A stretch of DNA of 32,000 nt from NCBI RefSeq assembly GCF_000009705.1, contig NC_003272.1, positions 2,250,001 through 2,282,000 on the forward strand, in the 5' to 3' direction. How positions within the stretch are numbered: the stretch's first letter is position 1; each line of letters begins with the position of its first letter. Source of the DNA: Nostoc sp. PCC 7120 = FACHB-418 (lineage in GTDB: Bacteria; Cyanobacteriota; Cyanobacteriia; Cyanobacteriales; Nostocaceae). Under the pieces are notes generated by a model. That model worked only from the letters and a program-made list of their open reading frames with translations, did no database searches and was not told the origin of the DNA. Made by a program: the position numbers and the translations under genes. Below are positions 4,768 to 30,083 of this stretch, piece by piece.

Positions 4768-7700
4768 TTATCCCTGCCACTCCTTCAACTTTTTCTGTGC
4801 ATACTCCCGCACTTGCTCATCTGGATCATTCTCTGCTCTGTCGCGCAACAGTGGTAAAGTTTTTTCATGCTGGGGATACTGTTTGATAATTATCTCAAGA
4901 GCAACGCGCCGGGGATTTGGGCTAAAACTATCATGGCTACCTTCAAAGGGGTCATTAACAACACAGTTGTAGTATGTTTCCAAAAGTTCAGGCTGGGATT
5001 TAAAAGCTTTAGCTAATTCTTGCACTACCGACCATCTCACAATTGAACTATTATCCGCAGTGGTAAGTTGCTGGAGAATAGTTTTGGTATTGGGGTCATC
5101 TTTGTGAGCCTTGACTAATTCTTGTACGGCTGTCCGTCGCACATCCGGGTCATTATCCGTAGTAACGAGTTGTTGGATGATGGTTTTGGTACAGATGTCA
5201 TCTTTATAAGCCTTAGCTAATTCTTGGACTACGGTCTGTCGCACATCCGAATCATCATCTGTAATGGCACATTCTTTAAGGAAGGTTTTGATAGTGAGGT
5301 CATATTTGTAAGCCTTAACTAACTCTTGTACGGCCGTTCGTCGCACATCCGAATCATTATCGACAATGGCACGTTTATGAATAAAAATTTTGATAGTGGA
5401 GTCATCCTTGTAAGCCTTAACTAACTCTTGTATTGCTGTTCTTCGCACATCCCAATGTTTATCCATAGTAGTAAGTTCTTGGAGAAAAATTTTGGTTGTA
5501 GAGTCATCTTTATAAGCTTTGACCAATTCTTGTAATGCTGTTTTTCGCACATCCCAACTATCATCTCTGATAGCAAATTCCTTGAGAAAAGTTTTGGTCG
5601 TGGGTTCATTTTTATAAGCTTTGACTAATTCTTGTATCGCTATCCGCCGTACTTCCCAACGCTTATCTACAGTGGCACATTTTTGGAGAATAGTTTTAGT
5701 TTCGAGGTCATCTTTGTAAGTTTGTGCTAATTTTTGTACAGCTATTATTCGTACAAAATCATCATCTGCATTGGTACGTTCTTGGAGAATTATTTTAGTG
5801 GTGGATTTATCTTTGCAAGTCTGATTTAATTCTTGTGCTGCTGTTCTTCGTACATCCAAATCATCATCCATAGTGGCACGTTCTTGGAGAAATGCTTTAG
5901 TAGCGGGGTCATATCTGTAAGCATTAATTAATTCTTGTACTGCTGTCATTCTCACATCCCAACTATCATCTACCGTAGCAATTTGTTGGAGAAAACTTTT
6001 AGTCGTGGGGTTATTTTTGTAAGTCCGAGCTAATTCTTGTATTGCTATTCGTCGCTCCACTGAGTAATTATTTGCAGTGACAATTTCTTGGAGAAATGTT
6101 TGAGTTGTAGGATCATCTTTGTAAGCCTGGGTGAATTCTTGTATTGCTTTCTGCCTTACATCTGAGTCATCATTCACTGTAGCAAGTTGTTGGAGAAAAG
6201 TTTTAGTTTCGGTTGAATCTTGCCAAGCTGCTGCAATTTCTCTAACTGCTTGAGTGCGGATATCTCGAATAAACTTAATTTCTTCGGAATCGTATTCAGG
6301 GCGATAATAATACCAGATATCATATTTAGTTAAGTTTTTTAGGTAGTTCAGTAATTTATCAGAAATGGACACTATCAATGAACGATTTCTCACTTCGACA
6401 AGACACTTAGCGGCTAAAAACATATTGATGAATTTATTTTCTTCACCATCCTGCACCATTAAATAATCAATAATTTCACCAACAAACTTGGCATCAATCA
6501 TACCAGCAATTAATAGTAAGACTTCATGCCAAGTTTCATCACGCCAGTGTTTGCCAAAAACTTCCGTTTTTAAATCCTCAATTGAAAGACTGCGTTCCTT
6601 CTCAAACCGCCAGACAAACTCCCAAGCACAGAAATATTCCAAAAAAGTGCGATGCACAAAAGCATAGTAATCAGCACCGAGGAAACATAACATAAAGTTA
6701 CGAGTTCTCAGTTGTTCTCTCATTACCCTCGCAGCTTGTCTGGGTTGATTAATTTCTGTAGTTCTTAAATATTCAGTCAGAATATTTTCTAATTGATCAG
6801 CACTAATCACATTACCAGCTAAACCCGCACCACTTGTTTGCATACTATAGGCAACTTGACGCAGCATAGCTTGCTTATCTTTGTAATCAATAGTCTTATG
6901 ATCTAGTCGTTTATCTTCAACTAAAGCCCGTTCCACATCCCACTGATGCAACAATACCCGCGATGCTTGTTCATAAAGTGAGTTTCTATCTCTAGGTAAT
7001 TCTTGATTACGATTAAGAATTGCCATCATCGTCAACAACAGAGGATTTCCTGCTAATTCTGTAATGGCTTTTGAATTTTCAATTCCTCTTAGCAGCCTTT
7101 CCCATTTTCTAAGTTTATCTGCTTCATCACTGAAAGTTAACTCATGCCAACGGTGAATAAAATCTTGAATTTGTGCTGAGTTCAAATCTTGCAACATAAA
7201 ATGGCGAAACTCAGCATCACGAAGCCGTTGCGGTTTATAACCAATTACGCGAGAAGTAACAATCACCTGCACATTAGGATACTCATTAGTAAAGCGATGA
7301 ATATCTGTAATTACATCCTCTCGCTTACCAGGGTCAAATACTTCATCTAACCCATCAAACATGACTAAAGCGTTACCAGCTTGTAGCTGTTGATGTAATT
7401 GATGTTGATTGAGATGTTCAATTGCACCGCTACATTTATCCAAAAATTCCAAAAAGTTATGACACTCATTCCCATCCCGCCGCCGCATATAAGTACGTAA
7501 CTCAATTAACAAAGGAATTGGTTGTGAGATCACATTATCTAATGGTGACTCAGACCAATTCAAAGCTAAATACTGCAACAGCGTAGACTTACCAGAACCA
7601 GGATCACCCAAAATTACAACATATTTATAACTTTGCTTATTATTAACAACATCTAATACTGAAAGTAGTGGCTGTTCTAAATAAACCCTTGTGAGTTTTT

Positions 7701-8541
7701 GCAATTCCTCGGCAGCAATTTCTGCCTCTATCTGGTCAGTTTCTCGCAGCCTTCTAAAGTGTTCCTTCGGCAGTTCATGAACTCGCGGCAAAACTTGATG
7801 CACTTCCCGCACATCTTGAGCTATGAACATTCGCCATAACTTGAGTTCGTTATAAGCGTAGCCAGTCGTATCTAAACTGTCTAATTTTAAATTGCCGTAA
7901 CGCTCACTAATTGCTTCTTGATAGCGTTTTAAATCGAATTGAGAAATAATGCCAGCTATGGCTTGTGTGTTTTCTTTAATTTGTTCTATATTCTGAGAAT
8001 CAAGAATTGCCCTCATTTCGGGAAATTCTCGAATAATCTTCTTCACTTTTGATAAATATTCTCTGCCTATCTTCTTCCATTTAAAATCTTCTGATAAGGA
8101 ACTAGAGGCGACCAATTGATACCAAATTTCTTGTAATCTCTTAGTATTGATAGCCTCACATTCATAGTCGAAAGCATCACCCAAAATTTGTTTAACTTCT
8201 GGCTGCTTTAAAAACTGCTGTAACGGCTGGGTATAATTTTCAATTTCTTCTTTTGATAGTTCACCGTATTCCAAATCTTGCTGCATGAGTTGCAGAAATT
8301 CTGCAAACGCCATTACTTCAGCTTTCTGTAGTGGTTCTCGCTGGAATGGCGCAGTCACAGCATTATGAATAATATTTCTGAAAAAATCTTTAGCGTAATC
8401 TTTGACTAACTCTTCTAAAAATTCCTTGCTGATGATAGTCTTAACCAAAAATCCAAATGCTTTTCCTGCAATCCAAGTACCAAACCATTCAATTAGCATA
8501 CCCGTGTCTGTTGATATTCTGAATACGAGTATATACACCAA
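4768..8541 (-). CDS. STAND NTPase: helical N-terminal domain + NACHT + about 12 HEAT-like repeats
   Basis: Walker A GDPGSGKST (nt ~7590..7615), Walker B LVMFDGLDE, sensor VIVTSR and GNPLLLTMM. The C-terminal third consists of ~35-aa repeats (xFLQxxAxxDxDxDVRRTAVQELVKAYKDDxTTK). The start is more likely the ATG at 8499 (MLIEWFG...). Confidence 0.9.
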   Translation of the reverse strand: MVYILVFRISTDTGMLIEWFGTWIAGKAFGFLVKTIISKEFLEELVKDYAKDFFRNIIHNAVTAPFQREPLQKAEVMAFAEFLQLMQQDLEYGELSKEEIENYTQPLQQFLKQPEVKQILGDAFDYECEAINTKRLQEIWYQLVASSSLSEDFKWKKIGREYLSKVKKIIREFPEMRAILDSQNIEQIKENTQAIAGIISQFDLKRYQEAISERYGNLKLDSLDTTGYAYNELKLWRMFIAQDVREVHQVLPRVHELPKEHFRRLRETDQIEAEIAAEELQKLTRVYLEQPLLSVLDVVNNKQSYKYVVILGDPGSGKSTLLQYLALNWSESPLDNVISQPIPLLIELRTYMRRRDGNECHNFLEFLDKCSGAIEHLNQHQLHQQLQAGNALVMFDGLDEVFDPGKREDVITDIHRFTNEYPNVQVIVTSRVIGYKPQRLRDAEFRHFMLQDLNSAQIQDFIHRWHELTFSDEADKLRKWERLLRGIENSKAITELAGNPLLLTMMAILNRNQELPRDRNSLYEQASRVLLHQWDVERALVEDKRLDHKTIDYKDKQAMLRQVAYSMQTSGAGLAGNVISADQLENILTEYLRTTEINQPRQAARVMREQLRTRNFMLCFLGADYYAFVHRTFLEYFCAWEFVWRFEKERSLSIEDLKTEVFGKHWRDETWHEVLLLIAGMIDAKFVGEIIDYLMVQDGEENKFINMFLAAKCLVEVRNRSLIVSISDKLLNYLKNLTKYDIWYYYRPEYDSEEIKFIRDIRTQAVREIAAAWQDSTETKTFLQQLATVNDDSDVRQKAIQEFTQAYKDDPTTQTFLQEIVTANNYSVERRIAIQELARTYKNNPTTKSFLQQIATVDDSWDVRMTAVQELINAYRYDPATKAFLQERATMDDDLDVRRTAAQELNQTCKDKSTTKIILQERTNADDDFVRIIAVQKLAQTYKDDLETKTILQKCATVDKRWEVRRIAIQELVKAYKNEPTTKTFLKEFAIRDDSWDVRKTALQELVKAYKDDSTTKIFLQELTTMDKHWDVRRTAIQELVKAYKDDSTIKIFIHKRAIVDNDSDVRRTAVQELVKAYKYDLTIKTFLKECAITDDDSDVRQTVVQELAKAYKDDICTKTIIQQLVTTDNDPDVRRTAVQELVKAHKDDPNTKTILQQLTTADNSSIVRWSVVQELAKAFKSQPELLETYYNCVVNDPFEGSHDSFSPNPRRVALEIIIKQYPQHEKTLPLLRDRAENDPDEQVREYAQKKLKEWQG
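4990..6204 (-). repeat. About 12 diverged ~105-bp coding repeats (HEAT/PBS-lyase-like) inside the NACHT protein
   Basis: A periodic DVR..A.QEL..AYK motif recurs every ~35 aa. The repeats are clearly diverged at the DNA level, unlike the array at 24281..26233. Confidence 0.8.
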
Positions 8542-8595: not shown

Positions 8596-9315
8596 TCAAA
8601 TCAAATTATCAGGATCTATTCCCAAGGCGCGTAATCTTTCCGCCAACTGTTGGGCGCGTTGTGCTTCCTGCTGGGCGCGTTGTTGGGCAAGTTGCGCTTG
8701 TTGTTGCGCCTGTTTAATCTGTTCTTCTGGTGTGGGATAACGCTTCCCTGCTTCGTCGTACCAATACATCCATTCCCGCGTTACACCGCAATAATTTCCC
8801 CTTTCGCAACCAATTCCTAAGCCAATTTCTGGTAGCCAAATTGGGTTTCCTTCTTGCAATTCATATTTGCCGTTCACTAATTTATGTACTTCTAAATGGG
8901 GTTTGCGACGGCGGCGAGAAGAATAAATGACGTAATAAAGTACACCCAAAGCGGCATAGTCATTTAATTTATCACTGTATTCTTTGCGGTAGTTTTGAGA
9001 AACAACTTCTAACACCAATATTGGCGTAACTTGTTCATCCCACAGCACATAACTGGGACGCAGTTCTTCATCATAAAATCTTTCTACCCCAAGGCTCAAA
9101 AACCCATCTGGAACAATTGGTGGTTGATCGGGGTGAAAATAAACACCCATATCTACACCAAAAAACCAGTCCATCCGTTCTGCCCAGAGTAGCAGCAGAA
9201 TTGCTTTTAGTAATCCTGGGATAAGTTCTTGCAGTTCGTTATCCACTGGTGTTTCGTCAGAGTCTGGTAGTTCGTCGGCTGAAGGTAAGTACCTTGGCAA
9301 GTTGAAGTTTAGCAT
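8596..9315 (-). CDS. Uma2-family (DUF820) PD-(D/E)xK-type endonuclease
   Basis: Carries LPSADELPDSDETPVDNE and a core ending ILVLEVVS.. The Q/A-rich coiled tail ending LRALGIDPDNL is typical of cyanobacterial Uma2 proteins. The ATG at 9315 is preferred over the TTG at 9330. Confidence 0.8.
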   Translation of the reverse strand: MLNFNLPRYLPSADELPDSDETPVDNELQELIPGLLKAILLLLWAERMDWFFGVDMGVYFHPDQPPIVPDGFLSLGVERFYDEELRPSYVLWDEQVTPILVLEVVSQNYRKEYSDKLNDYAALGVLYYVIYSSRRRRKPHLEVHKLVNGKYELQEGNPIWLPEIGLGIGCERGNYCGVTREWMYWYDEAGKRYPTPEEQIKQAQQQAQLAQQRAQQEAQRAQQLAERLRALGIDPDNLI

Positions 9316-9375
9316 GACGGGTTGCCCCAAAATCTTCTACACCAGTGTTTTCATCAGTATTATAGCGGTTTCTTT

Positions 9376-9595: not shown

Positions 9596-11176
9596 ATGTC
9601 TAAGGTTCTCGTCTCCGATCCTATTGACCAGGCTGGCATTGACATTCTCTCGCAAGTCGCTACTGTTGATGTCAATACAGGTCTCAAACCAGCAGAATTA
9701 ATAGAAATTATTGGTCAGTATGACGCGTTAATGATTCGTTCTGGTACGCGCGTCACTCAAGAAATTATTGAAGCAGGTACACAACTGAAAATCATCGGTC
9801 GTGCCGGTGTGGGTGTGGATAATGTAGATGTTCCGGCTGCTACTCGTCGAGGAATTGTTGTTGTCAATTCTCCTGAGGGGAACACTATCGCCGCCGCCGA
9901 ACACGCCTTGGCGATGATGCTGTCATTGTCTCGCCACATCCCCGATGCTAACGCTTCCGTGAAACGCGGTGAGTGGGATCGTAAAACTTTCGTAGGTGCG
10001 GAAGTTTATAAAAAAACTTTAGGGGTTGTCGGTTTAGGCAAAATTGGTTCCCATGTGGCGGCTGTTGCTAAAGCAATGGGGATGAAATTGTTAGCTTACG
10101 ATCCTTTCATTTCCACTGAACGGGCCGAACAAATTGGCTGTCAGTTAGTAGATTTAGATTTGCTGATGCAGCAATCTGACTATATTACCCTGCACATTCC
10201 CAAAACCCCAGAAACCACCCACATCATCAACGCCACCACTCTGGCGAAAATGAAGCCCACCGCCCGGATTATCAACTGCGCCCGTGGGGGCATTATTGAT
10301 GAAGCAGCCTTAGCCGCAGCGATTAAAGAAGGGAAAATTGCTGGGGCGGCGCTGGATGTGTTCGAGTCGGAACCACTGGGTGAATCAGATTTAAGAGCGA
10401 TCGGTAAAGATATCATTCTTACCCCCCACTTAGGTGCATCCACCACAGAAGCCCAGGTGAATGTAGCTATTGACGTAGCTGAACAAATCCGCGATGTACT
10501 TTTAGGTTTACCCGCACGTTCCGCCGTCAACATCCCCGGACTCGGCCCCGATGTGTTGGAAGAACTAAAACCCTATATGCAGTTAGCGGAAACCTTGGGT
10601 AAGTTGGTAGGACAGCTAGCAGGTGGGCGGGTAGAACTACTCACTGTCCGCTTACAAGGGGAACTCGCTACTAACAAGAGTCAGCCTTTAGTAATTGCTT
10701 CCCTCAAAGGATTACTACACCAAGCCCTACGGGAACGAGTAAACTACGTCAACGCCAACATAGAAGCCAAGGAACGGGGAATCCGGGTTATTGAAACCCG
10801 CGACGCTTCCGCCCGTGACTATGCTGGTTCCCTACGCCTGGAAGCGACAGGAACCTTAGGTACTCATTCCGTGACCGGCGCATTGCTAGGCGATAAGGAA
10901 ATTCACCTCACCGACGTTGACGGCTTCCCGATTAACGTCCCACCAAGCAAATACATGGTGTTTACCTTGCACCGTGATATGCCAGGAATCATTGGCAAAC
11001 TCGGTTCCTTACTGGGCAGCTTTAATGTCAATATTGCCAGTATGCAGGTAGGGCGGAAAATCGTCCGTGGTGATGCCGTTATGGCTCTCAGCATTGATGA
11101 TCCTTTACCAGATGGCATTTTAGCGGAAATCACCAAAGTACCCGGCATTCGGGACGCGTATACAGTAACACTATAG
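9596..11176 (+). CDS. serA: D-3-phosphoglycerate dehydrogenase (long form with C-terminal ACT domain)
   Basis: 526 aa. It has the NAD-binding motif GVVGLGKIGSHVA, the catalytic R..E..H context (NCARGG, LTPHLGAST) and a C-terminal ACT-like regulatory segment. Confidence 0.93.
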   Translation: MSKVLVSDPIDQAGIDILSQVATVDVNTGLKPAELIEIIGQYDALMIRSGTRVTQEIIEAGTQLKIIGRAGVGVDNVDVPAATRRGIVVVNSPEGNTIAAAEHALAMMLSLSRHIPDANASVKRGEWDRKTFVGAEVYKKTLGVVGLGKIGSHVAAVAKAMGMKLLAYDPFISTERAEQIGCQLVDLDLLMQQSDYITLHIPKTPETTHIINATTLAKMKPTARIINCARGGIIDEAALAAAIKEGKIAGAALDVFESEPLGESDLRAIGKDIILTPHLGASTTEAQVNVAIDVAEQIRDVLLGLPARSAVNIPGLGPDVLEELKPYMQLAETLGKLVGQLAGGRVELLTVRLQGELATNKSQPLVIASLKGLLHQALRERVNYVNANIEAKERGIRVIETRDASARDYAGSLRLEATGTLGTHSVTGALLGDKEIHLTDVDGFPINVPPSKYMVFTLHRDMPGIIGKLGSLLGSFNVNIASMQVGRKIVRGDAVMALSIDDPLPDGILAEITKVPGIRDAYTVTL

Positions 11177-20590: not shown

Positions 20591-21637
20591 ATGATTAACA
20601 TTGACGGTTCCTACGGCGAGGGAGGCGGGCAAGTCCTCCGCACTTCCCTGAGTTTAGCCGCCATCACTGGTGAACCCATACGTATTGCCGGCATTCGCGC
20701 CGGACGCAGGAAGCCAGGATTAGCAGCACAACACTTAACAGCAGTGCGTGCGGCGGCGAGAATTTGTCATGGGGAATTGCAAGGTGATGCTTTAGGTTCC
20801 ACGATGCTGGAATTTATACCTGGTGGTGGGGTAAAAGCAGGAAATTATATTTTTGATGTCAGCGAAGTACAGCAAGGTGGTTCGGCTGGGGCGATTACTC
20901 TGGTTTTGCAGACAATTCTCTTACCTTTAGCTTTAGCAGATGGTGATTCTCATATCACCTTACGGGGTGGAACTCATGTCATTTTCAGCCCCACAGTCAC
21001 CTACATTGAGCGAGTATATCTGCCAATGTTATGTCGCATGGGAATCAAGGCACAAGTTAAGTTAGGTGCTTGGGGATGGTATCCCAGGGGTGGGGGAGAA
21101 GTCAATTTACAGGTGAAGGGAGGCTGTCAACTCTGCGGTCTTAACTTGCTGGAAAGGGGAGAATTAAAGCGGGTACAAGGACTAGCTGTGGCGACAGAAT
21201 TACCTGCACATATACCCCAGCGCATGGCAAATCGGGCTGAGAATTTGTTACGTACAGCAGGTTTGCGGGTATCTATGCAGGCGTTACGTGAAAAAGGTGT
21301 TGCACCAGGGGCGGGGATTTTTTTAACGGCTGAGTATTGTAATAGTTTGACGGGTTTTGGTGGCTTTGGACGTTTGCGATTGTCTTCTGAAAAAGTAGCA
21401 GAGATTGCTTGCGGACAACTATTACAATTCCATGAAACTGGCGCACCAGTTGATGAACACCTAGCAGATCAATTATTATTACCGGCGGTTCTGGCTTCCG
21501 AGTCCAGTCAGTATAAAGTGGCTGAGGTGAGTACACACTTAACAACTAACGCCGCAGTCATTGAAAAGTTTGGCTTAGGAAAGATTACCGTCAATCAAGC
21601 AGAAAGGGTAGTGGCGATCGCCTCTAGTAAAGTTTAA
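20591..21637 (+). CDS. rtcA: RNA 3'-terminal phosphate cyclase
   Basis: [24 protein letters not shown] and GLAAQHL match RtcA. The C-terminal LADQLLLP...STHLTTN holds the nucleotidylated-His motif. Confidence 0.9.
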
Positions 21638-21639
21638 TC

Positions 21640-22143
21640 CTACTTCCAAATAATAGGAGCGATCGCCGCCATGAACAAGAGAAAAGCTATTTCTAAAACG
21701 TAGCTGATAAAGACACTGCGATTTAAAAGACCATCCCAGAGATAGCCTTGGCGCTTGGGGTTATTGGTGCGCTTGTGGGTATGCGACCAACTACTGTAAA
21801 TCCCAGGGGTTTTGAAACTATATGTATTAGTGAGAATATACTCAATTTCGTAAACGCGGGGATAGAAACCGCGCTGAAAGTGTTTCCATTGACTTTCGAG
21901 AATCCAGAAAAATAGGGGAATCGTGCAACCGATGAGAGCGATCGCTGTAGCGTTGGGTCTTTGCTGTAACATCAATGTTAAAACACCACCAGTCCCAGTA
22001 ATTCCCAGTGCTTTGATTACCCAAATCTGCTTGTTGTAGTCTTCGATAGTGTTTTGCAGAAAAAAGTATTCCTCCTTGAGCAAGTTTAATTCAAAATCAC
22101 TCAGGGGTTGAGACTGGGTTTCAGTTGGTAATGGGTAAGACAT
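21640..22143 (-). CDS. Hypothetical small membrane protein (3 predicted TM helices)
   Basis: 167 aa. A ~35-aa polar/amphipathic N-terminus is followed by TM1 IWVIKALGITGTGGVLTLML, TM2 AIALIGCTIPLFFWILE and a C-terminal TM VFISYVLEIAFLLFMAAIAPIIW. I recognise no family. Confidence 0.55.
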   Translation of the reverse strand: MSYPLPTETQSQPLSDFELNLLKEEYFFLQNTIEDYNKQIWVIKALGITGTGGVLTLMLQQRPNATAIALIGCTIPLFFWILESQWKHFQRGFYPRVYEIEYILTNTYSFKTPGIYSSWSHTHKRTNNPKRQGYLWDGLLNRSVFISYVLEIAFLLFMAAIAPIIWK

Positions 22144-22263
22144 TGTTGTTAGTAGAGTTCACTGAGATGAAGTTAGCATAAACAGGGCTGAGTGCAAAAG
22201 ATGAACGTAAAATGCTTACCTTAGATGTGTTTCCCCTAGTACAGCAATTCAATCATCCTAGAA

Positions 22264-22350
22264 AGACCCCTCCCCCAACCCCTCCCCGACGCGGAGAGGG
22301 GAGCTAATTCTCCCCCTTCCCTCGTAGGGAAGGGGGTTGGGGGGTTAGGT
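22264..22350 (+). repeat. 87-bp double-hairpin dispersed repeat, intergenic copy
   Basis: The two hairpins are cccctcccc-gacgc-ggagagggg and cccccttccct-cgt-agggaaggggg. It is about 90 percent identical to 23081..23167 in the same orientation. Confidence 0.75.
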
Positions 22351-22392
22351 TTGTGATTACTGAATCGATATTCTAGTGGCTTAAGATGTTCA

Positions 22393-22623
22393 AATACTCG
22401 CCCACGAGATAAAAATACTCGCCCACGAGACAAAAATACTCGCTCACGAGATAAAAATACTCACCCACGAGATAAAAATACTCACTCACGAGATTCTAAT
22501 ACTCACTCACGAGATTCTAATACTCACTCACGAGACAAAAATACTCGCCCACGAGACAAAAATACTCGCCCACGAGATAAAAATACTCGTGAACGAGATG
22601 CTGATACTCGTGAACGAGAATTA
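22393..22623 (+). repeat. Tandem array of 11 x 21 bp (consensus AATACTCGCCCACGAGATAAA)
   Basis: There are exactly 11 contiguous 21-bp units with no spacers. Each holds a small CTCG-N4-CGAG palindrome, and 7 of 11 carry an A5-6 tract. The array ends 148 bp upstream of the ATG at 22772. Confidence 0.95.
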
Positions 22624-22771
22624 TAAACTGAACAATAAAGTTACAATTTAAGTCAGTAAATTAAACCATGTCTATAAAACACACTCACTAGAAGTTAGGT
22701 AAGCAACATTTAATCTTTCTCTCTATCCCTTTCTCTTTCCCCAAAATCAGCATTTCACTATCCGGCACACC

Positions 22772-25700
22772 ATGATCAACTGGAATGACTACCTAGAATC
22801 ACTCTGCAAAGATTATGCCCAATGGTGGAATGCTTACACGTTGACGGATGTAGTAGGACAGCAGCGAATTGAGCAGAAGCGATCGCCCCTACTGTTAGAT
22901 TTTATAGTGCAGACGGTACAATCTGCCAAGGAAGAAAGGAGCGCCAGCCAGGAGCAAGTTGAGCGTTTAGACGTGCTAGCAGGGTTGCGAAAGTATGCTC
23001 AAGAACACGTTTTGCTAGTAGGGCGACCAGGTTCAGGGAAATCGACAGCTTTATTGCGGTTATTGCTAGAAGAAGCGGAGAGACCCCTCCCCCAACCCCT
23101 CCCCGACGCGGAGAGGGGAGTATTAGCTCCCCCTTCCCTTGCAGGGAAGGGGGTCGGGGGGTTAGGTCAAATCCCCATCCTAGTAGAGTTGCGCTATTAC
23201 CAAACCTCAATCCTAGACTTGATTCGGGATTTCTTGAAACGCCATTGCCTACTACTAGACACTGCAACCATAGAACAACTGCTGTTTGACGGGCAATTTT
23301 TGCTGCTGGTAGATGGTATCAACGAATTACCCTCAGAGAAAGCGCGACAAGATTTATATAAATTCCGGCAAGACAACCAAAAAACCACGCCGATGATATT
23401 CACCACGCGGGATTTAGGCGTGGGGGGTGATTTGGGCATTACCAAGAAGCTGGAAATGCAACCCCTGACAGCAGAACAAATGCAGCAATTTGTCCGCGCC
23501 TATTTGCCAGCACAGGGTGAACAGATGTTGCAGAACTTAGGCGACAGGTTGCGGGAGTTTGGGGAAACACCGTTGCTGCTGTTTATGCTGTGTTTATTGT
23601 TTGTTGAAACAGGAGACATCCCGCCGAACTTGGGTTTGCTGTTTCGCGAGTTGACCCAACGTTATAAGAACGAGTTGAAGCCAAATGTCCCAGTTAAAGG
23701 TGTGTCACGGGATCATTGGTCATGGTTATTACAACATTTGGCGTTCAACATGACCAAAGGGGATAAGCTGACAGAATTGAATGTTGCCATACTCAAGTCA
23801 AAAGCAGAGGAAGTTTTAACGCAGCTTTTGAAAGATGAAGGATTTAATCCACCCCGTGACCAAGCATCAGAATCGTTGAAAGATTTACTCAACCATGATT
23901 TAATTCAACTGGCTGCAAATGACCAAATTGAATTTCGCCACCAACTAATTCAGGAATATTACACCGCCGAATGTTTGCTCAAGCTGTTACCAAGCCTCAG
24001 TGATGACTCTCTCCAGCGAGAGTATTTAAATTATTTAAAATGGACTGAACCCCTAAAATTGATGCTGGAATTGGTGGATGATAGGGCGCTGGCGGTGCGA
24101 GTGGTGAACTTAGCCTTAAAGGTAGATTACCAGTTAGGCGCAAAGTTAGCAGGTGCAGCAAAGCCAGAGTTGCAGCAGCAGACAGTTGATTTAATACCTG
24201 GGTTAAAAATTCCTTTATTATTCAAAATCTGCCTTCTAGGTTTAACTAAATCTGAAAAAGCAATTTCTCATCTCAATCCATTACTAGAAGATGAAAACTC
24301 CTCTGTGCGTGATAGTGCGGCATCTGCCCTGGGAGAAATCAAATCAGAGGCGGCGATTCCTGGGCTAATTAAATTACTAGAACATGAAAACTCCTCTGTG
24401 CGTTATAGTGCGGCATCTGCCCTGGGAGAAATCAAATCAGAGGCGGCGATTCCTGGGCTAATTAATTTACTAGAACATGAAAACTTCGATGTGCGTTATC
24501 GTGCGGCATCTGCCCTGGGAGAAATCAAATCAGAGGCGGCGATTCCTGGGCTAATTAATTTACTAGAACATGAAAACTCCTCTGTGCGTTATCGTGCGGC
24601 ATCTGCCCTGGGACAAATCAAATCAGAGCAGGCTATTCTAGGGCTAATTAAATTACTAGAACATGAAAACTCCTCTGTGCGTTATCGTGCGGCATCTGCC
24701 CTGGGACAAATCAAATCAGAGCAGGCTATTCTAGGGCTAATTAAATTACTAGAACATGAAAACTCCGATGTGCGTTATCGTGCGGCATCTGCCCTGGGAG
24801 AAATCAAATCAGAGCAGGCTATTCCTGGGCTAATTAATTTACTAGAACATGAAAACTTCGATGTGCGTTATAGTGCGGCATCTGCCCTGGGAGAAATCAA
24901 ATCAGAGCAGGCTATTCCTGGGCTAATTAATTTACTAGAACATGAAAACTTCGATGTGCGTTATAGTGCGGCATCTGCCCTGGGAGAAATCAAATCAGAG
25001 GCGGCGATTCCTGGGCTAATTAATTTACTAGAACATGAAAACTTCGATGTGCGTTATAGTGCGGCATCTGCCCTGGGAGAAATCAAATCAGAGGCGGCGA
25101 TTCCTGGGCTAATTAATTTACTAGAACATGAAAACTTCGATGTGCGTGATAGTGCGGCATCTGCCCTGGGAGAAATCAAATCAGAGGCGGCGATTCCTGG
25201 GCTAATTAATTTACTAGAACATGAAAACTTCGATGTGCGTTATAGTGCGGCATCTGCCCTGGGAGAAATCAAATCAGAGGCGGCGATTCCTGGGCTAATT
25301 AATTTACTAGAAGATGAAAACTCCGATGTGCGTTATAGTGCGGCATCTGCCCTGGGAGAAATCAAATCAGAGGCGGCGATTCCTGGGCTAATTAATTTAC
25401 TAGAAGATGAAAACTCCCCTGTGCGTAGAAGGGCGGCATCTGCCCTGGGACAAATCAAATCAGAGGCGGCGATTCCTGGGCTAATTAATTTACTAGAAGA
25501 TGAAAACTCCCCTGTGCGTAGAAGGGCGGCATCTGCCCTGGGACAAATCAAATCAGAGGCGGCGATTCCTGGGCTAATTAATTTACTAGAAGATGAAAAC
25601 TCCTCTGTGCGTTATAGTGCGGCATCTTCCCTGGGACAAATCAAATCAGAGCAGGCTATTCTAGGGCTAATTAAATTACTAGAAGATGAAAACTCCTCTG

Positions 25701-27415
25701 TGCGTAGAAGGGCGGCATCTGCCCTGGGAGAAATCAAATCAGAGCAGGCTATTCCAGGGCTAATTAAATTACTAGAACATGAAGACTCCGATGTGCGTTA
25801 TCGTGCGGCATCTGCCCTGGGAGAAATCAAATCAGAGCAGGCTATTCCAGGGCTAATTAAATTACTAGAAGATGAAGACTCATTTGTGCGTTATCGTGCG
25901 GCATCTGCCCTGGGAGAAATCAAATCAGAGCAGGCTATTCTAGGGCTAATTAATTTACTAGAAGATGAAGACTCCTCTGTGCGTTATCGTGCGGCATCTA
26001 CCCTGGGACAAATCAAATCAGAGCAGGCTATTCCAGGGCTAATTAATTTACTAGAAGATGAAAAATCCTCTGTGCGTGATAGTGCGGCATCTGCCCTGGG
26101 AGAAATCAAATCAGAGCAGGCTATTCCAGGGCTAATTAATTTACTAGAAGATGAAAACTCCTCTGTGCGTGATAGTGCGGCATCTGCCCTGGGAGAAATC
26201 AAATCAGAGCAGGCTATTCCTATGCTCATGAATCGGTTAGAAAATGAAGAGTTTGTGTCAGCAAATAATGGGAATACTTTGTATTCTGCACTAGAAGCAC
26301 TGGAAGCAATACAAGAAAACTGTCAATACTATAGATGTCTCACAGAACAGAAACCACAACTATATCTTCCCCCATCCCAGCCAAGTAAAACATCCCTAAT
26401 GTACATCCTCCACCTCTCAGACCTGCACTTCGGCACACCTGACGAAGCCAACAAGTGGTCTAACCAACTAGCGATGGACTTGAAACAAGAACTCCAGATT
26501 CCTCACCTTGATGCCCTCATTCTCTCCGGCGACATCGCCAACAAATCAACCCCCGACGAATACGCAGCCGCCCAAAAATTCCTTGATGAACTTCGCCAAG
26601 ACTTCTCCCTCAAATTTGAGCAAATTATCATCGCCCCTGGTAATCATGACCTCAATTGGCAAATCTCAGAGGAAGAAGGTTACATCCCAACACTTCGCAA
26701 AAAATATCAAGAGTCAATGGATGAGAGTTGTGTAATTGATGATGGTGGTGCATATATTGCAGTTGTAGATCCAGAAAACCACAAAAGACGCTTTGAACAC
26801 TTCAGCAACTTCTACCAAGCCATTAAAAACCAACCCTATCCCCTAGAGTATGAGAAGCAATACACCCTAGACCATTTCCCTAACCAAAACCTACTCATTC
26901 TAGGCTTAAACTCCGCTTGGCAATTGGATCATCATTACAAATCCCGTGCCAGCATTAACATAAATGCACTCACCAACGCCCTCACAGACATTCGCCGCAA
27001 TCAATATTATCAAAACTGCATCAAAATAGCAGTATGGCATCATCCCCTAGATAGCGCCTGGGAAGACCGCATCAAAGACCAAAGCTTCATGGAACAGTTA
27101 GCCGTCGCAGGTTTCCGCTTCTTCCTCCACGGACACGTCCACAAAGCCGAAACTAGCCTCTACCGTTATGATATGAGTGCTAACGGTCGAAAACTTGACC
27201 GCATCTGTGCAGGTACTTTCGGCGCACCCACCCGCGAACTTAACCCCGGTTATCCCTGGCAATACAACCTGCTGAAATTTGCAGACAATAAACTAACCGT
27301 CTACACCCGCCGCCGCGAAGAACTCAACGGCCCATGGAAACCCGATGCACGCTGGCTAATGGGTGCAGGGCAAAATCCATTACCCTACTACGAAGTAATG
27401 ATGGATTACACGTAG
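22772..27415 (+). CDS. STAND NTPase: NACHT + 21 near-identical HEAT repeats + C-terminal calcineurin-like metallophosphoesterase
   Basis: NACHT motifs: Walker A GRPGSGKST, Walker B FLLLVDGINE, MIFTTR and GETPLLLFML. The array has 21 units of LLE(H/D)ENxxVRxxAASALG(E/Q)IKSE(A/Q)AI(P/L)GLI(N/K). The C-terminal ~340 aa carry all five MPE motifs: LSDLHFG, SGDIANK, PGNHD, VWHHP and HGHVH. Confidence 0.9.
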   Translation: MINWNDYLESLCKDYAQWWNAYTLTDVVGQQRIEQKRSPLLLDFIVQTVQSAKEERSASQEQVERLDVLAGLRKYAQEHVLLVGRPGSGKSTALLRLLLEEAERPLPQPLPDAERGVLAPPSLAGKGVGGLGQIPILVELRYYQTSILDLIRDFLKRHCLLLDTATIEQLLFDGQFLLLVDGINELPSEKARQDLYKFRQDNQKTTPMIFTTRDLGVGGDLGITKKLEMQPLTAEQMQQFVRAYLPAQGEQMLQNLGDRLREFGETPLLLFMLCLLFVETGDIPPNLGLLFRELTQRYKNELKPNVPVKGVSRDHWSWLLQHLAFNMTKGDKLTELNVAILKSKAEEVLTQLLKDEGFNPPRDQASESLKDLLNHDLIQLAANDQIEFRHQLIQEYYTAECLLKLLPSLSDDSLQREYLNYLKWTEPLKLMLELVDDRALAVRVVNLALKVDYQLGAKLAGAAKPELQQQTVDLIPGLKIPLLFKICLLGLTKSEKAISHLNPLLEDENSSVRDSAASALGEIKSEAAIPGLIKLLEHENSSVRYSAASALGEIKSEAAIPGLINLLEHENFDVRYRAASALGEIKSEAAIPGLINLLEHENSSVRYRAASALGQIKSEQAILGLIKLLEHENSSVRYRAASALGQIKSEQAILGLIKLLEHENSDVRYRAASALGEIKSEQAIPGLINLLEHENFDVRYSAASALGEIKSEQAIPGLINLLEHENFDVRYSAASALGEIKSEAAIPGLINLLEHENFDVRYSAASALGEIKSEAAIPGLINLLEHENFDVRDSAASALGEIKSEAAIPGLINLLEHENFDVRYSAASALGEIKSEAAIPGLINLLEDENSDVRYSAASALGEIKSEAAIPGLINLLEDENSPVRRRAASALGQIKSEAAIPGLINLLEDENSPVRRRAASALGQIKSEAAIPGLINLLEDENSSVRYSAASSLGQIKSEQAILGLIKLLEDENSSVRRRAASALGEIKSEQAIPGLIKLLEHEDSDVRYRAASALGEIKSEQAIPGLIKLLEDEDSFVRYRAASALGEIKSEQAILGLINLLEDEDSSVRYRAASTLGQIKSEQAIPGLINLLEDEKSSVRDSAASALGEIKSEQAIPGLINLLEDENSSVRDSAASALGEIKSEQAIPMLMNRLENEEFVSANNGNTLYSALEALEAIQENCQYYRCLTEQKPQLYLPPSQPSKTSLMYILHLSDLHFGTPDEANKWSNQLAMDLKQELQIPHLDALILSGDIANKSTPDEYAAAQKFLDELRQDFSLKFEQIIIAPGNHDLNWQISEEEGYIPTLRKKYQESMDESCVIDDGGAYIAVVDPENHKRRFEHFSNFYQAIKNQPYPLEYEKQYTLDHFPNQNLLILGLNSAWQLDHHYKSRASININALTNALTDIRRNQYYQNCIKIAVWHHPLDSAWEDRIKDQSFMEQLAVAGFRFFLHGHVHKAETSLYRYDMSANGRKLDRICAGTFGAPTRELNPGYPWQYNLLKFADNKLTVYTRRREELNGPWKPDARWLMGAGQNPLPYYEVMMDYT
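23081..23167 (+). mobile_element. 87-bp double-hairpin repeat inserted in frame within the NACHT domain
   Basis: It encodes RPLPQPLPDAERGVLAPPSLAGKGVGGLG (29 codons, no stop) between the Walker A helix (..LLLEEAE) and the next strand (QIPILVELR). The paralogue at 4768..8541 has only about 10 residues at this point. Confidence 0.75.
24281..26233 (+). repeat. 21 x 93-bp near-perfect tandem coding repeats (HEAT array)
   Basis: The period is exactly 93 bp, and unit n starts at 24281+93(n-1). Units 4 and 5 (24560..24745) and units 13 and 14 (25397..25582) are identical neighbouring pairs. A degenerate capping unit follows. Confidence 0.95.
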
Positions 27416-27500: not shown

Positions 27501-30083
27501 TCACTTCTCCTGAAACGTCCACACCCCTTCATCCCATTCTGAATCTGTTGGAGGTGATTGTAACCAATGCTGACAGCGTAGCAGATGCAACATCGCGGCT
27601 TTGTCATGTTTATCAACTGCTAAAACATTGGCAAATTCTGCTCTTGCTAAGGAAAATTGACGTTGCAGGTAATATTCCCGTCCCTTGTGATAATGCTCAA
27701 TTACCTGCAATTTTTCACTAGCAATGGGGTCAGAACGTAAACCAATTAACTCGTATATAGATACTGGCTCATTTCTGCCTTTAACACGGATAAAATCTAG
27801 TTCTCTAGCCCAAATATTTTCCTGGCATGGTTTAAAAGTATTATCACTGAGAATAATGTCGCAACCATACTGCTTACTCACACTTTCTAAGCGGGAACCC
27901 AGATTCACACCATCACCAATAGCTGTAAATTCCATACGTTTACTAGAGCCAATGTTGCCACTAATTACGGTGTCGGAATTGATGCCAATACCGATATTGA
28001 TTCGGGGTTTATTAGCTGCATAACGTTTTTGATTAAATTCTTGTAAGCGATGACGCATTTCTATAGATGTTTTTACAGCCATCCAAGCGTGTTCTTCTAA
28101 GGGCAAAGGTGAACCAAACACGGCCATAATCGCATCACCGATGTATTTATCCAGAGTGCCTTTGTGTTTGAATACAGCCTCTACCATCGACTCAAAATAT
28201 TCATTGAGCATACTTACGACTTCTTCGGCTTCCAGATTTTCCGTCAAAGTGGTGTAACCGCGAATATCCGAAAAGAGGATGGAAACTTCTTTGCGATCGC
28301 CTCCCAGTTTAGCATCGTCTAATTTCAGCAATTCCTCGGCTAATTCCTGAGTCATGTAGCGATACATCGTACTCTTGAGGCGCTTCTCATCGCTAATATC
28401 TTCCATCACCACCAACGCGCCGCAGACTTGCTGGGGATCGCTAGCATCGGCAATGGTATTAATCGATAGGTTAATGCTATTTTGTGCTGCTTCAGTGCTT
28501 ACTAGTGTGCGGTCTGGGTAATATTGCTGGCGGCCTTTGAGGTCTGTCCCATGTAAGGCATCTTGACACCATTTGCTAAAATCGCCTTCTTTAATGGCGA
28601 TCGCCTCACTGATGAGTTTACCTTCCAAACGATCTTCTGATTCCAGCCCCAACAAACGCTGGGCGCTTTCATTCGCTGCAATAATTGTCCCAGACTTATC
28701 TGTGGAAATCACACCGTTGGACAAACTCCGCAGAATATCCCGTTGCATTTGCTCTTGTTGCTTGACTGTGGCAAACAACTGAGCATTTTGTAAAGCCACC
28801 CCGGCTTGAATATTAAAAGCTTCCATGAATTCTTCGTCGTTGCGGTCAAAACTCGCTTGGAAGCATTCGGGCGCTATCGGCCAAGTTTCTGGATTATAGG
28901 GGGGGAACTCTCCGGTTTTCTTTTTATTTACCAGTTGGGTCACACCAATTAATTCTTGGTCGCCGTTAAATACAGGCATACATAATAAACTACAGGTGCG
29001 GTAGCCATTTTGCTGGTCGATTTGTTTGGCAGTTGCCGAGTCTGGATGGTCGTATAAATCAAAAGGGATGTTGAGTTTTTGACCGGATGCGGCGACGATC
29101 CCGGCAAAACCTTTACCTATGGGAACGCGCAACTCCTTAGTAGAACCATTATCTTGAGTAATTTTCGTCCATAATTCATGGCGATCGCGGTCTATCAGCC
29201 ATAAGGTACTGCGATCGGCGTTCATCAGTTCCTTGGCTTCATCCATTACCCGTTTGAGGGTATCTTCTAAATCCAGACTACTTTGGCTCAGAGACTTTAC
29301 CGCCTTCATCATCGCCGCCGCCGCCCTTTGTTTTTGCGTCGCTATATAAAAGGAGCGTGACGACTCCAAAATCAAGCGAATTGAGGGCGCAAATTCTTGA
29401 AACAATTGCTCATCTGCACTGGTAAAACCTTGATTATCAATCCGTTCTGCTAGCAGTGCATCAGGAGGACTGTAAGGTTTTAATTTGTTGAGTAACTGTA
29501 CCACCGCGACTAATCGCCCTTGCTCACTCAATAGCGGTAAAGCCAGCATTGTATATGTGCGGTAGCCAGTGATTTTCTCTTGTTTTTGGGCAAATATCGA
29601 CCGAGGATCGTGATAAAAGTCAAAGGGTATATTAACTACTTGTTTAAAAGTAGCGACTTCACCGGCAATCCCCTTGTCGGCGGGGATGCGAATTTCTAGG
29701 GAGCGATCGCCTTCTCCGGCGGCGACAATCGACCACAATTCTTGTTTTTCTTCATCTAGCAAAAATATAGTCGTCCGATCTGCCCCCAACAATTCCCCAG
29801 TTTTTAAGGTAATTGACTGCAACATCTCTTGCAGGATATTTTCAAACCCGTGAGAATCCAACATTGACAGGGTTTGATGCACAATTTGGAGTTTTTGCTC
29901 GACTTCTGTAACAACTTGTTTAAAAGTATCCTGAGTTAAGGGAGCAAGAAATGTCGAAATAGTACCTTTTCTGCGGGCTAGTGTGCCGACAGGAGCCGAA
30001 GTTTCTGGCAAGTTTTGCTCTTGGTTTTGCGTACCTAAGATCAAATCGCCAGTCTCCCCAAAATTACGCTGTTGCAATGACAT
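27501..30083 (-). CDS. cyaB1: Adenylate cyclase, GAF-GAF-PAS-class III cyclase-TPR-like architecture (CyaB1 type)
   Basis: 860 aa with two GAF domains (the second has an NK...F..DE-type motif, NKKKTGEF...FDRNDEEF), a PAS segment (LRSLSNGVISTDKSG) and a class III catalytic domain (VSILFSDIRGYTT, KYIGDAIMAVFG, GDGVNLGSRLE). This matches my memory of Anabaena CyaB1 in length and domain order. Confidence 0.88.
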   Translation of the reverse strand: MSLQQRNFGETGDLILGTQNQEQNLPETSAPVGTLARRKGTISTFLAPLTQDTFKQVVTEVEQKLQIVHQTLSMLDSHGFENILQEMLQSITLKTGELLGADRTTIFLLDEEKQELWSIVAAGEGDRSLEIRIPADKGIAGEVATFKQVVNIPFDFYHDPRSIFAQKQEKITGYRTYTMLALPLLSEQGRLVAVVQLLNKLKPYSPPDALLAERIDNQGFTSADEQLFQEFAPSIRLILESSRSFYIATQKQRAAAAMMKAVKSLSQSSLDLEDTLKRVMDEAKELMNADRSTLWLIDRDRHELWTKITQDNGSTKELRVPIGKGFAGIVAASGQKLNIPFDLYDHPDSATAKQIDQQNGYRTCSLLCMPVFNGDQELIGVTQLVNKKKTGEFPPYNPETWPIAPECFQASFDRNDEEFMEAFNIQAGVALQNAQLFATVKQQEQMQRDILRSLSNGVISTDKSGTIIAANESAQRLLGLESEDRLEGKLISEAIAIKEGDFSKWCQDALHGTDLKGRQQYYPDRTLVSTEAAQNSINLSINTIADASDPQQVCGALVVMEDISDEKRLKSTMYRYMTQELAEELLKLDDAKLGGDRKEVSILFSDIRGYTTLTENLEAEEVVSMLNEYFESMVEAVFKHKGTLDKYIGDAIMAVFGSPLPLEEHAWMAVKTSIEMRHRLQEFNQKRYAANKPRINIGIGINSDTVISGNIGSSKRMEFTAIGDGVNLGSRLESVSKQYGCDIILSDNTFKPCQENIWARELDFIRVKGRNEPVSIYELIGLRSDPIASEKLQVIEHYHKGREYYLQRQFSLARAEFANVLAVDKHDKAAMLHLLRCQHWLQSPPTDSEWDEGVWTFQEK

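Follow-up and report, generated by a model that had tools for sequence, protein, structure and literature searches.

A NACHT-HEAT protein of Nostoc sp. PCC 7120 with a C-terminal metallophosphoesterase as a candidate NLR-like conflict switch

What kind of device is encoded by a gene that joins a NACHT NTPase, a long array of near-identical repeats and a phosphoesterase in a single chain, with the candidate effector placed behind the repeats? This question is raised by alr1903 of Nostoc sp. PCC 7120, which lies in the 32,000-nt stretch of DNA analysed here (contig NC_003272.1, positions 2,250,001 to 2,282,000 of the forward strand; hereafter the window). On balance, we lean towards reading the 1547-amino acid (aa) product as a single-chain, NLR-like conflict or immune switch whose output is the C-terminal dimetal phosphodiesterase, probably working with a small protein of three transmembrane (TM) segments encoded next to it. 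Our confidence in the role of this partner is much lower than in the immune or conflict switch itself.

The C-terminal domain belongs to the calcineurin-like metallophosphoesterases (MPEs) by its motifs, its profile score and its modelled fold. Pfam Metallophos (PF00149) aligned with aa 1210-1458 at 37.3 bits (cut-off 21.5), and the five MPE motifs that an earlier note, written from the sequence alone, had listed in order showed little or no variation when 51 MPE domains and 70 full-length relatives were aligned. An AlphaFold2 (AF2) model of the domain, with a predicted local distance difference test (pLDDT) score of 88.8, adopted the MPE fold, and the top 50 Protein Data Bank (PDB) matches found with it by Foldseek were all chains of the MPE superfamily. 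The dimetal site thus appears intact, as the note had claimed, and hydrolysis is predicted.

The closest fold neighbour was Bacillus subtilis YydB (E 5e-19, TM score 0.64), followed by Lmo2642, GpdQ, Rv0805, SMPDL3A/B, acid sphingomyelinase and purple acid phosphatases (1e-12 to 1e-8), with Mre11 at only about 1e-7; a viral fold library returned generic MPE matches alone. This ranking is our one ground for preferring a small-molecule phosphodiesterase, acting on a nucleotide or possibly a lipid head group, over a nuclease, and we favour that substrate class with much less confidence than the immune switch. The YydB chain (PDB 9a6c_B) is modelled as a complex with YydD, and a literature search on the function of YydB and YydD turned up nothing useful. 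Among named profiles, the best matches of the domain were to validated anti-phage metallophosphatases, DS-9A and DS-8 (PMC13092281), which supports the note's view of the MPE as the candidate effector: NCBIfam DS9_1 'anti-phage phosphoesterase' (NF053862) gave 4e-25 and 88.5 bits against a cut-off of 420, and DS8 'anti-phage protein' (NF053861) gave 4e-22 and 77.7 bits against a cut-off of 790, over profile positions 1-234 of 994. PADLOC PDC-S60 matched at 3e-24 and the PADLOC 'Effector / Endonuclease' profile PDLC00736 at 1.5e-20. In DS-8, a metallophosphatase and a NACHT domain share one chain, and mutation of either abolishes phage defence in E. coli; the homologous metallophosphatase DS-9A has a HAD phosphatase as its partner (PMC13092281).

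Upstream of the repeats, the protein is a NACHT-clade STAND NTPase by its Walker A and B motifs, its Pfam score and the NLR-like fold of a modelled homologue. All four NACHT motifs named in the earlier note (GRPGSGKST, FLLLVDGINE, FTTR and GETPLLL) were present as listed and are invariant or nearly so across the 70 full-length relatives, Walker A and Walker B being invariant. Pfam NACHT (PF05729) passed marginally, at 27.2 bits against a cut-off of 26.7 and with an alignment confined to aa 150-247, probably because of a 28-aa in-frame insertion after Walker A. Likeness of the NBD-HD1-WHD-HD2 fold to animal NLRs was assessed on a model of P0286, a short homologue with 72% identity taken as a stand-in for the alr1903 protein, which matched NLRC4, NOD2, NLRP3 and NAIP5 with E-values from 4e-10 to 1e-7. 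The post-Walker A loop carries a palindromic element of about 87 nt, a second copy of which (about 92% identity) lies at approximately 22265-22350. Relatives hold different or nested elements in the same loop and keep the flanking motifs, so this loop tolerates mobile-element insertions. Only 83 aa precede the P-loop; they gave no Pfam match and are too short for an enzymatic effector, in agreement with the note, which had seen no N-terminal effector domain.

Between the NTPase and the MPE lie exactly 21 units of 31 aa, the number counted in the earlier note, and Pfam HEAT_PBS matched 21 stretches. At the DNA level they form a tandem repeat with a 93-nt period, 20.9 copies and 95% matches (nt 24281-26221). 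The unit consensus is LLEhENssVRysAASaLGeIKSEqAIpGLIn, with variable positions 4, 6, 7, 8, 11, 12, 19, 24, 27 and 31, and the nucleotide differences among units are almost entirely non-synonymous. Mean pairwise dN and dS were 0.34 and 0.16 for the 10 variable codons, 0.011 and 0.037 for the other 21, and 0.107 and 0.061 for all 31, with a mean dN/dS among the 21 units of 1.75, a value that we treat as suggestive because the sites were chosen post hoc and gene conversion violates the model. The HEAT part of the modelled homologue matched the alphaRep structures 3ltj, 3ltm and 4jw2 with 27-32% identity, and we take the randomised positions of alphaRep (xxVRxxAAxALGx, on the concave face) to correspond to unit positions 7, 8, 11, 12 and 19. 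Relatives have anywhere from 2 to about 28 copies, and even near-identical strains can be one unit apart (1516 versus 1547 aa); the copy in Trichormus variabilis (P0370) has one HEAT repeat fewer. Internally conserved repeats with site-limited variability and unstable copy number have been described for fungal het-type NLRs (PMC4986451). The 21-unit array is presumed to be the ligand sensor.

The distribution of this architecture was sampled in the best 120 relatives from a search with the full-length protein. Ninety-six of them join NACHT, HEAT and MPE in one chain of 943-1747 aa, with hosts including Anabaena, Nostoc, Calothrix, Nodularia, Fischerella, Moorena, Symploca and Coleofasciculus, and in a scan of species-representative genomes the parts were fused in 35 of 80 loci and split in seven. 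Sorangium has a NACHT-HEAT-MPE protein with a different NACHT subfamily, and the family extends over filamentous cyanobacteria, myxobacteria and Desulfobacterota, which fits the conflict systems of 'multicellular bacteria' (PMC7159879, PMC8195603). The earlier note had thought the layout unusual; the effector does sit distal to the repeats, but across many cyanobacterial genera and Sorangium the arrangement is not rare. Searches with the MPE alone or the NACHT alone had only proteins of up to about 860 aa among the matches listed.

The 24 relatives without an MPE mostly have a tail of 190-370 aa after the repeats (only 31-70 aa in three), and six such tails were scanned with Pfam. A Peptidase_C14 caspase was found in P0294, TIR_2 in P0313 and DUF4062 in P0320, the last being renamed an NADase domain in the abstract of a recent preprint. 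No Pfam match was obtained for the tails of P0339 (aa 1130-1360) and P0360 (aa 1115-1324); a D..ECK motif in the former suggests a PD-(D/E)xK nuclease-like domain, and the latter protein starts with a Trypsin_2 domain (aa 1-215). Precomputed Pfam lists contain further caspase and TIR members among the relatives, with domain positions unchecked. The same cap motif precedes every scanned tail, whichever domain follows, and in P0245 an EAD8 adaptor is inserted between the cap and the MPE. Since caspase, TIR, DUF4062 or MPE can follow the same cap, the C-terminus of these NACHT-HEAT proteins acts as an effector slot. Beyond this slot, the MPE family is found as a standalone protein, in EAD1-VMAP-M1-MPE, HEAT-EAD8-MPE, TIR-MPE, MPE-SIR2, MPE-NACHT-LRR, MPE-nSTAND5-TPR, AAA16-TPR-MPE and WD40-Roc-...-MPE fusions, and adjoining MoxR genes. 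These many forms argue that it is a mobile effector module, neither a sensor nor a housekeeping enzyme, and its presence on EAD1/EAD8, TIR, SIR2 and the N-termini of other STANDs lends further support to the role proposed for it in the earlier note.

In Nostoc HK-01 and Moorena, NACHT-HEAT and HEAT-MPE are encoded by adjacent open reading frames (ORFs). The junctions (9600-10300 in both L002 and L003) contain frame changes and stops within degenerate HEAT units, and these loci are thus split or frameshifted forms of one gene. The Moorena pieces have consistent lengths across four assemblies (751-813 and 501-503 aa), which suggests that they function as two polypeptides. We also considered that the fused gene might be a repeat-mediated assembly chimera of NACHT-HEAT and HEAT-MPE genes, and rejected this in view of the approximately 96 fused relatives and of an identical protein in independent complete genomes. 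The alr1903 product is identical to BAB73602.1 / WP_010996067.1 of Nostoc (Anabaena) sp. PCC 7120, and the identical 1547-aa protein is recorded in the complete PCC 7120 chromosome and in FACHB-709; a protein of A. cylindrica FACHB-170 is a same-length member of its cluster. P0241, from Anabaena sp. FACHB-595, is identical over 1457 aa, diverges right after GHVH and then stops. A published table places alr1903 directly beside cyaB2 (all1904), with matching coordinates (PMC4192349); this HetR ChIP-seq study was the sole paper naming the gene that a literature search on alr1903 found.

The gene divergent from alr1903, presumably all1902, encodes the 167-aa protein with three predicted TM helices, here TM167, which had no Pfam or NCBIfam match. 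TM167 alone emerged as a specific recurrent neighbour when flanking ORFs were clustered all against all. Across the scanned genomes, a homologue lay divergently and less than 2 kb upstream in 15 of the 35 fused or split loci with enough flanking sequence, and in L073 one lies 73 nt upstream of a standalone MPE. When 54 metagenome loci were seeded on TM167 instead, 35 had an MPE-family and/or NACHT ORF nearby, most of the others being contigs shorter than 3 kb. In L097, an MPE-NACHT-LRR gene begins 4 nt downstream of the TM167 homologue on the same strand, and further partners are MPE-nSTAND5-TPR (L119), MPE-SIR2 (L129) and an MPE fused to an unknown part (L123). Because the partners that are not NACHT-HEAT-MPE proteins are still MPE proteins, TM167 appears to track the MPE domain.

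The wider TM167 family, about 228 clusters in all, consists of small proteins that stand alone and carry the signature EYF.LQ...ED(F/Y)(D/N)...IK.W...FW..E..WK.FQ...Y.R...IE. PADLOC PDC-M50A was matched by 52 of 70 members (best 4e-11) and weakly by the window protein itself (E 0.001); among 70 relatives, Pfam gave DUF2270 for nine and 8xMP for four, and a literature search on PDC-M50 and 8xMP yielded nothing useful. Assignment to SLATT or EACC1 was rejected, there being no match to a Pfam EACC1 model and no Pfam SLATT match for the window protein at E<=10 or in 70 relatives at E<=0.01. We likewise discarded the idea of a common theme around distant TM167 relatives, one of which follows a minimal nucleotidyltransferase and another an acyl-CoA-synthetase-like gene. 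In L147 (5693-5983, 6001-6480) the relative P0414 comes immediately after a 96-aa minimal nucleotidyltransferase, in surroundings where toxin-antitoxin-like genes (Fic, DUF433, DUF5615) are inserted in an NADH dehydrogenase operon. A search of plasmids for TM167 yielded nothing but a truncated remnant, without annotation, on a plasmid of Nostoc.

Table 1. Features of alr1903 and its divergent neighbour, in window coordinates.
Feature	Position (nt)	Strand	Remarks
Whole gene alr1903, NACHT-HEAT(x21)-MPE protein	22772..27415	+	1547 aa; ATG start; single uninterrupted ORF
N-terminal extension, conserved	22772..23020	+	aa 1-83; motif W.YL.SLC..YAQWWN.YTLTDV
NACHT NTPase module with helical and winged-helix domains	23021..24211	+	aa ~84-480
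Walker A GRPGSGKST	23021-23047	+	aa 84-92
GC-rich palindromic repeat element	23084..23167	+	translated in frame as PLPQPLPDAERGVLAPPSLAGKGVGGLG; loop after Walker A helix
Walker B FLLLVDGINE	23297-23326	+	aa 176-185 (LLLVDGINE = aa 177-185)
FTTR motif	23399-23410	+	aa 210-213
GETPLLL motif	23561-23581	+	aa 264-270
21 tandem HEAT_PBS-type repeats	24281..26233	+	aa 504-1154; 31 aa each (93-nt units)
Cap/junction motif NNG.TL..A..AL.AIQ..C.YY	26264..26332	+	aa 1165-1187; closes solenoid
Calcineurin-like MPE domain	26399..27412	+	aa 1210-1547; includes conserved ~90-aa C-terminal beta extension
MPE DxH motif	26414-26434	+	D1217-x-H1219
MPE GD motif	26525-26545	+	G1253-D1254
MPE GNHD motif	26636-26650	+	G1290-N-H-D1293
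MPE HH motif	27032-27046	+	H1423/H1424
MPE GHxH motif	27128-27142	+	G1454-H-x-H1457
Three-TM protein gene (TM167)	21640..22143	-	167 aa; divergent from alr1903; PADLOC PDC-M50A family
Intergenic region common to three-TM gene and alr1903	22144..22771	.	contains palindromic-element copy and 21-nt tandem repeat

Between the two divergent genes (Table 1) lies a 21-nt tandem repeat, AAATACTCGCCCACGAGATAA, with 9.4 copies and 90% matches (22392-22589), which may be regulatory or belong to a cyanobacterial repeat family; a promoter and terminator scan of this intergenic region gave nothing exceeding shuffled expectation. On the other side of TM167, 2 nt separate the stop of the three-TM gene from the end of rtcA, which encodes an RNA 3'-phosphate cyclase (20591-21637, + strand). 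RtcA stands beside the TM gene in only five loci (the window, L004, L019, L089 and L091), a recurrence that may reflect lineage synteny or else a connection with 2',3'-cyclic phosphate chemistry. Only a close Nostoc relative (L004) retains synteny with the window, and Nostoc HK-01 shares only the TM gene; since the neighbourhood in HK-01 is otherwise different, the alr1903-TM167 pair relocates. Downstream, a CyaB2-type GAF-GAF-PAS adenylate cyclase ORF (27501-30083, - strand) is convergent with alr1903; its cyclase domain matched the Pycsar cyclase models of PADLOC (best E 4e-23), which we read as shared cyclase-domain homology. Fourteen kilobases away the window holds a second NLR-like protein of 1257 aa (NNH2, NACHT, HEAT; 4768-8541, - strand), and the gene adjoining it encodes a Uma2-family putative restriction endonuclease (8596-9330, - strand) that matches PADLOC PDC-S03.

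How might such a protein work? Judging from the position-specific variability of the repeats and the analogy with alphaRep, the concave face of the HEAT solenoid would bind the trigger, an invader protein or another non-self or stress cue. Ligand binding would then relieve autoinhibition, and the NACHT module, as its NTPase motifs and NLRC4/NOD2-like fold suggest, would exchange nucleotide and oligomerise. Oligomerisation may cluster or unmask the MPE domains and allow phosphodiester hydrolysis, and the fold neighbours and the homology to DS-8 and DS-9A point to a nucleotide or nucleotide-derived small molecule as the most probable substrate, rather than bulk DNA. The outcome might be arrest or death of the affected filament cell, and from genomic linkage we speculate that the three-TM protein could serve as membrane co-effector, docking site or safeguard. 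A bolder version, which we think unlikely to hold as a whole, would make TM167 and the MPE family a hitherto unrecognised two-part effector cassette used on varied sensors (NACHT-HEAT, NACHT-LRR, nSTAND5-TPR, Roc-WD40 and SIR2 fusions). Here the phosphodiesterase would make or destroy a small nucleotide, or cleave a lipid head group, and so gate or target the membrane protein, and the 21 HEAT units would read an extended or periodic ligand through a few alternative residues at four or five concave-face positions, in a modular, code-like manner, comparable to engineered armadillo or alphaRep binders and to TALE or PUF repeats.

Comparison with known systems places the proposed switch near, but outside, several of them. 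Like DS-8, it couples a homologous metallophosphatase to a NACHT NTPase in one polypeptide; in DS-8, however, the metallophosphatase is N-terminal and there is no HEAT array, so that the domain order is reversed. Against the DS-8 equivalog NF053861 only the MPE domain aligns and the alr1903 protein is not a member; nor is it a member of DS-9, as it stays below that cut-off and Pfam scans of the window ORFs turned up no HAD family. The accessible part of PMC13092281 mentions no three-TM partner for either system. Bacterial NACHT proteins (bNACHTs) and Avs share with it a NACHT-clade STAND, a repeat-type sensor and a fused enzymatic effector. In the part of Kibby et al. accessible to us, calcineurin-like phosphoesterases are listed among bNACHT effectors and some effectors lie at the extreme C-terminus, behind repeats, but no tested bNACHT there has the architecture of alr1903. 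Membership in Avs/AVAST is not supported either, with no Avs model among the PADLOC matches at E<=0.01 and a different architecture, and the same is true for CBASS, for which we found the 'Effector/Endonuclease' domain match only and no CD-NTase-type nucleotidyltransferase in the window.

The EAD, vWA-MoxR-VMAP and DO-GTPase conflict systems (Kaur, Burroughs, Iyer, Aravind 2020, 2021) use the same MPE family, predicted there to be a nucleotide phosphodiesterase, but in alr1903 no adaptor intervenes between NACHT-HEAT and the effector fused behind it. In GTPase-centred conflict systems, calcineurin, PNPase and TIR effectors are often accompanied by a 2TM SLATT protein, predicted to be a nucleotide-gated pore (Kaur et al; PMC7159879), an analogy that suggests a possible mechanism for TM167, although TM167 is not a detectable SLATT. 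Fungal HET-E/HET-D NLRs resemble alr1903 in their near-identical tandem repeats, variation at few surface positions and unstable copy number, and differ in having N-terminal effectors and mostly WD40, ANK or TPR repeats; alphaRep proteins, in turn, are engineered and have no NTPase. In mammalian NLRP1 and CARD8 the output module, FIIND-CARD, is C-terminal to the repeat sensor, so an effector behind the sensor has an NLR precedent; that output is an adaptor freed by proteolysis and not an enzyme, and there is no homology beyond the NACHT.

The earlier note had called the module undescribed. This holds for the exact NACHT-HEAT-MPE order, which is experimentally uncharacterised, but C-terminal effectors after repeats and calcineurin-like effectors on bNACHTs are in print, as are calcineurin-like effectors in conflict systems of multicellular bacteria and DS-8 as a validated metallophosphatase-NACHT system. 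New here are the link between TM167 and the MPE, the repeat variation at positions randomised in alphaRep and an MPE fold nearer to small-molecule phosphodiesterases than to Mre11. The note had mentioned neither the TM167 neighbour nor the pattern of variation within the repeats. Our literature searches found no published description of the TM167-MPE link or of the alphaRep-like pattern of repeat variability, and no paper on a NACHT-HEAT-MPE clade with a conserved cap and effector slot.

Several observations weigh against an immune or conflict switch with a membrane partner. No phenotype, biochemical assay or trigger is on record for any NACHT-HEAT-MPE protein. Matches to PADLOC and NCBIfam concern the domain only and score far under the family cut-offs; the full-length model has a predicted TM-score (pTM) of 0.57, with unreliable inter-domain geometry; and gene conversion and the post hoc choice of sites also confound dN/dS as an argument for diversification of the sensor. 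The window neighbours are mostly housekeeping genes (Tgt, SerA, PrmA, thioredoxin, GroEL, heme oxygenase, PGM, RtcA, CyaB2), with no classical defence island. Conserved core synteny, which the earlier note had raised as a point against an immune role, is absent between genera; with a mostly housekeeping neighbourhood, this comparison is ambiguous. As for the partner, over half of the fused loci, among them every Moorena locus, lack TM167, and none of four NACHT-HEAT paralogues with a caspase, TIR or DUF4062 tail had TM167 within 5 kb, compared with the 15 of 35 given above, an underpowered contrast (Fisher p = 0.15).

Other explanations must be set against these points. The MPE could be an Mre11/SbcD-type nuclease, degrading DNA or RNA upon activation as an abortive-infection effector, as the match to PDLC00736, weak sequence matches to SbcD profiles and PDB chains within the first ~95 residues of the MPE, and the frequency of nuclease effectors on STANDs (Kibby et al.) would suggest. 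We consider this unlikely, since Foldseek puts YydB, Lmo2642, GpdQ, Rv0805 and SMPDL3A 4 to 12 orders of magnitude ahead of Mre11, the SbcD matches do not reach beyond the N-terminal motifs that the two share, a search for a capping or DNA-binding domain like that of Mre11 found none in the alr1903 protein, and nucleotide substrates are predicted by Kaur et al. and by the authors of DS-8 (PMC13092281). A developmental role, in which the protein acts as a switch for self-directed cell death or for allorecognition, serving filament development or kin discrimination in the manner of fungal HET-type NLRs, draws on the HetR ChIP-seq study. There, a hetR mutant had 4.9-fold less alr1903 transcript at 6 h after nitrogen step-down, and a HetR peak maps within alr1903 (PCC 7120 coordinates 2274728-2275590; PMC4192349 Table 1); such HetR-dependent expression could point to a developmental instead of an antiviral function, and the family is concentrated in multicellular bacteria. 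Since the peak falls in repetitive DNA and contains no HetR motif, it may be an artefact of the repeats; otherwise the gene may be under developmental regulation. Among relatives of the MPE (DS-8, DS-9) and of bacterial NACHTs, all those tested are anti-phage, no data tie alr1903 to heterocyst pattern or fusion incompatibility, and we hold this explanation to be distinctly improbable.

Rarer still, in our estimate, are the chances that alr1903 is a housekeeping cAMP/cGMP phosphodiesterase, not an immune protein, that works with the adjoining cAMP-activated adenylate cyclase CyaB2. Convergence with cyaB2 at a distance of about 85 nt, the label 'CpdA' given to many homologues by JGI, the class III cyclic nucleotide phosphodiesterase Rv0805 among the fold neighbours and the housekeeping genes all around are in its favour. 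However, the adjacency is not conserved, and we rejected a functional link with cyaB2 because a CyaB2-like cyclase is near only two of the 80 loci of the genome collection plus the two looked up separately; the 'CpdA' names are automatic COG labels; the HEAT array is hypervariable with an unstable copy number; and close relatives swap the C-terminal slot for caspase, TIR or DUF4062, which would be unexpected in a dedicated cAMP pathway. Hardly credible, finally, is a decaying, non-functional gene that is ridden with repeats and a mobile-element insertion and is heading towards a pseudogene. The in-frame palindromic element within the NACHT, the divergent FACHB-595 allele that ends just past GHVH and the orthologues of Nostoc HK-01 and Moorena split inside the HEAT array would all be explained, but the 4.6-kb ORF is uninterrupted with all catalytic motifs intact, several strains have the identical protein, relatives tolerate differing insertions in the same loop with the flanking motifs kept, the Moorena pieces have consistent lengths in four assemblies, and alr1903 is transcribed and regulated (PMC4192349).

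We thus return to the NLR-like conflict or immune switch with a phosphodiesterase output. PCC 7120 is a model organism with a genome sequenced long ago, it is genetically tractable and cultured cyanophages exist, which makes alr1903 a practical entry point to questions about NLR-like metallophosphatases. The gene bears on the substrate of metallophosphatase effectors, including those of DS-8 and DS-9, on how an effector placed behind its sensor is switched on, and on the role of the three-TM partner. Its diversified, alphaRep-like array offers a view of how bacterial NLRs make recognition diversity by repeat shuffling, in parallel with fungal NLRs, and if the link to the partner holds, the MPE and TM167 would represent a reusable effector cassette common to several sensor classes in multicellular bacteria.

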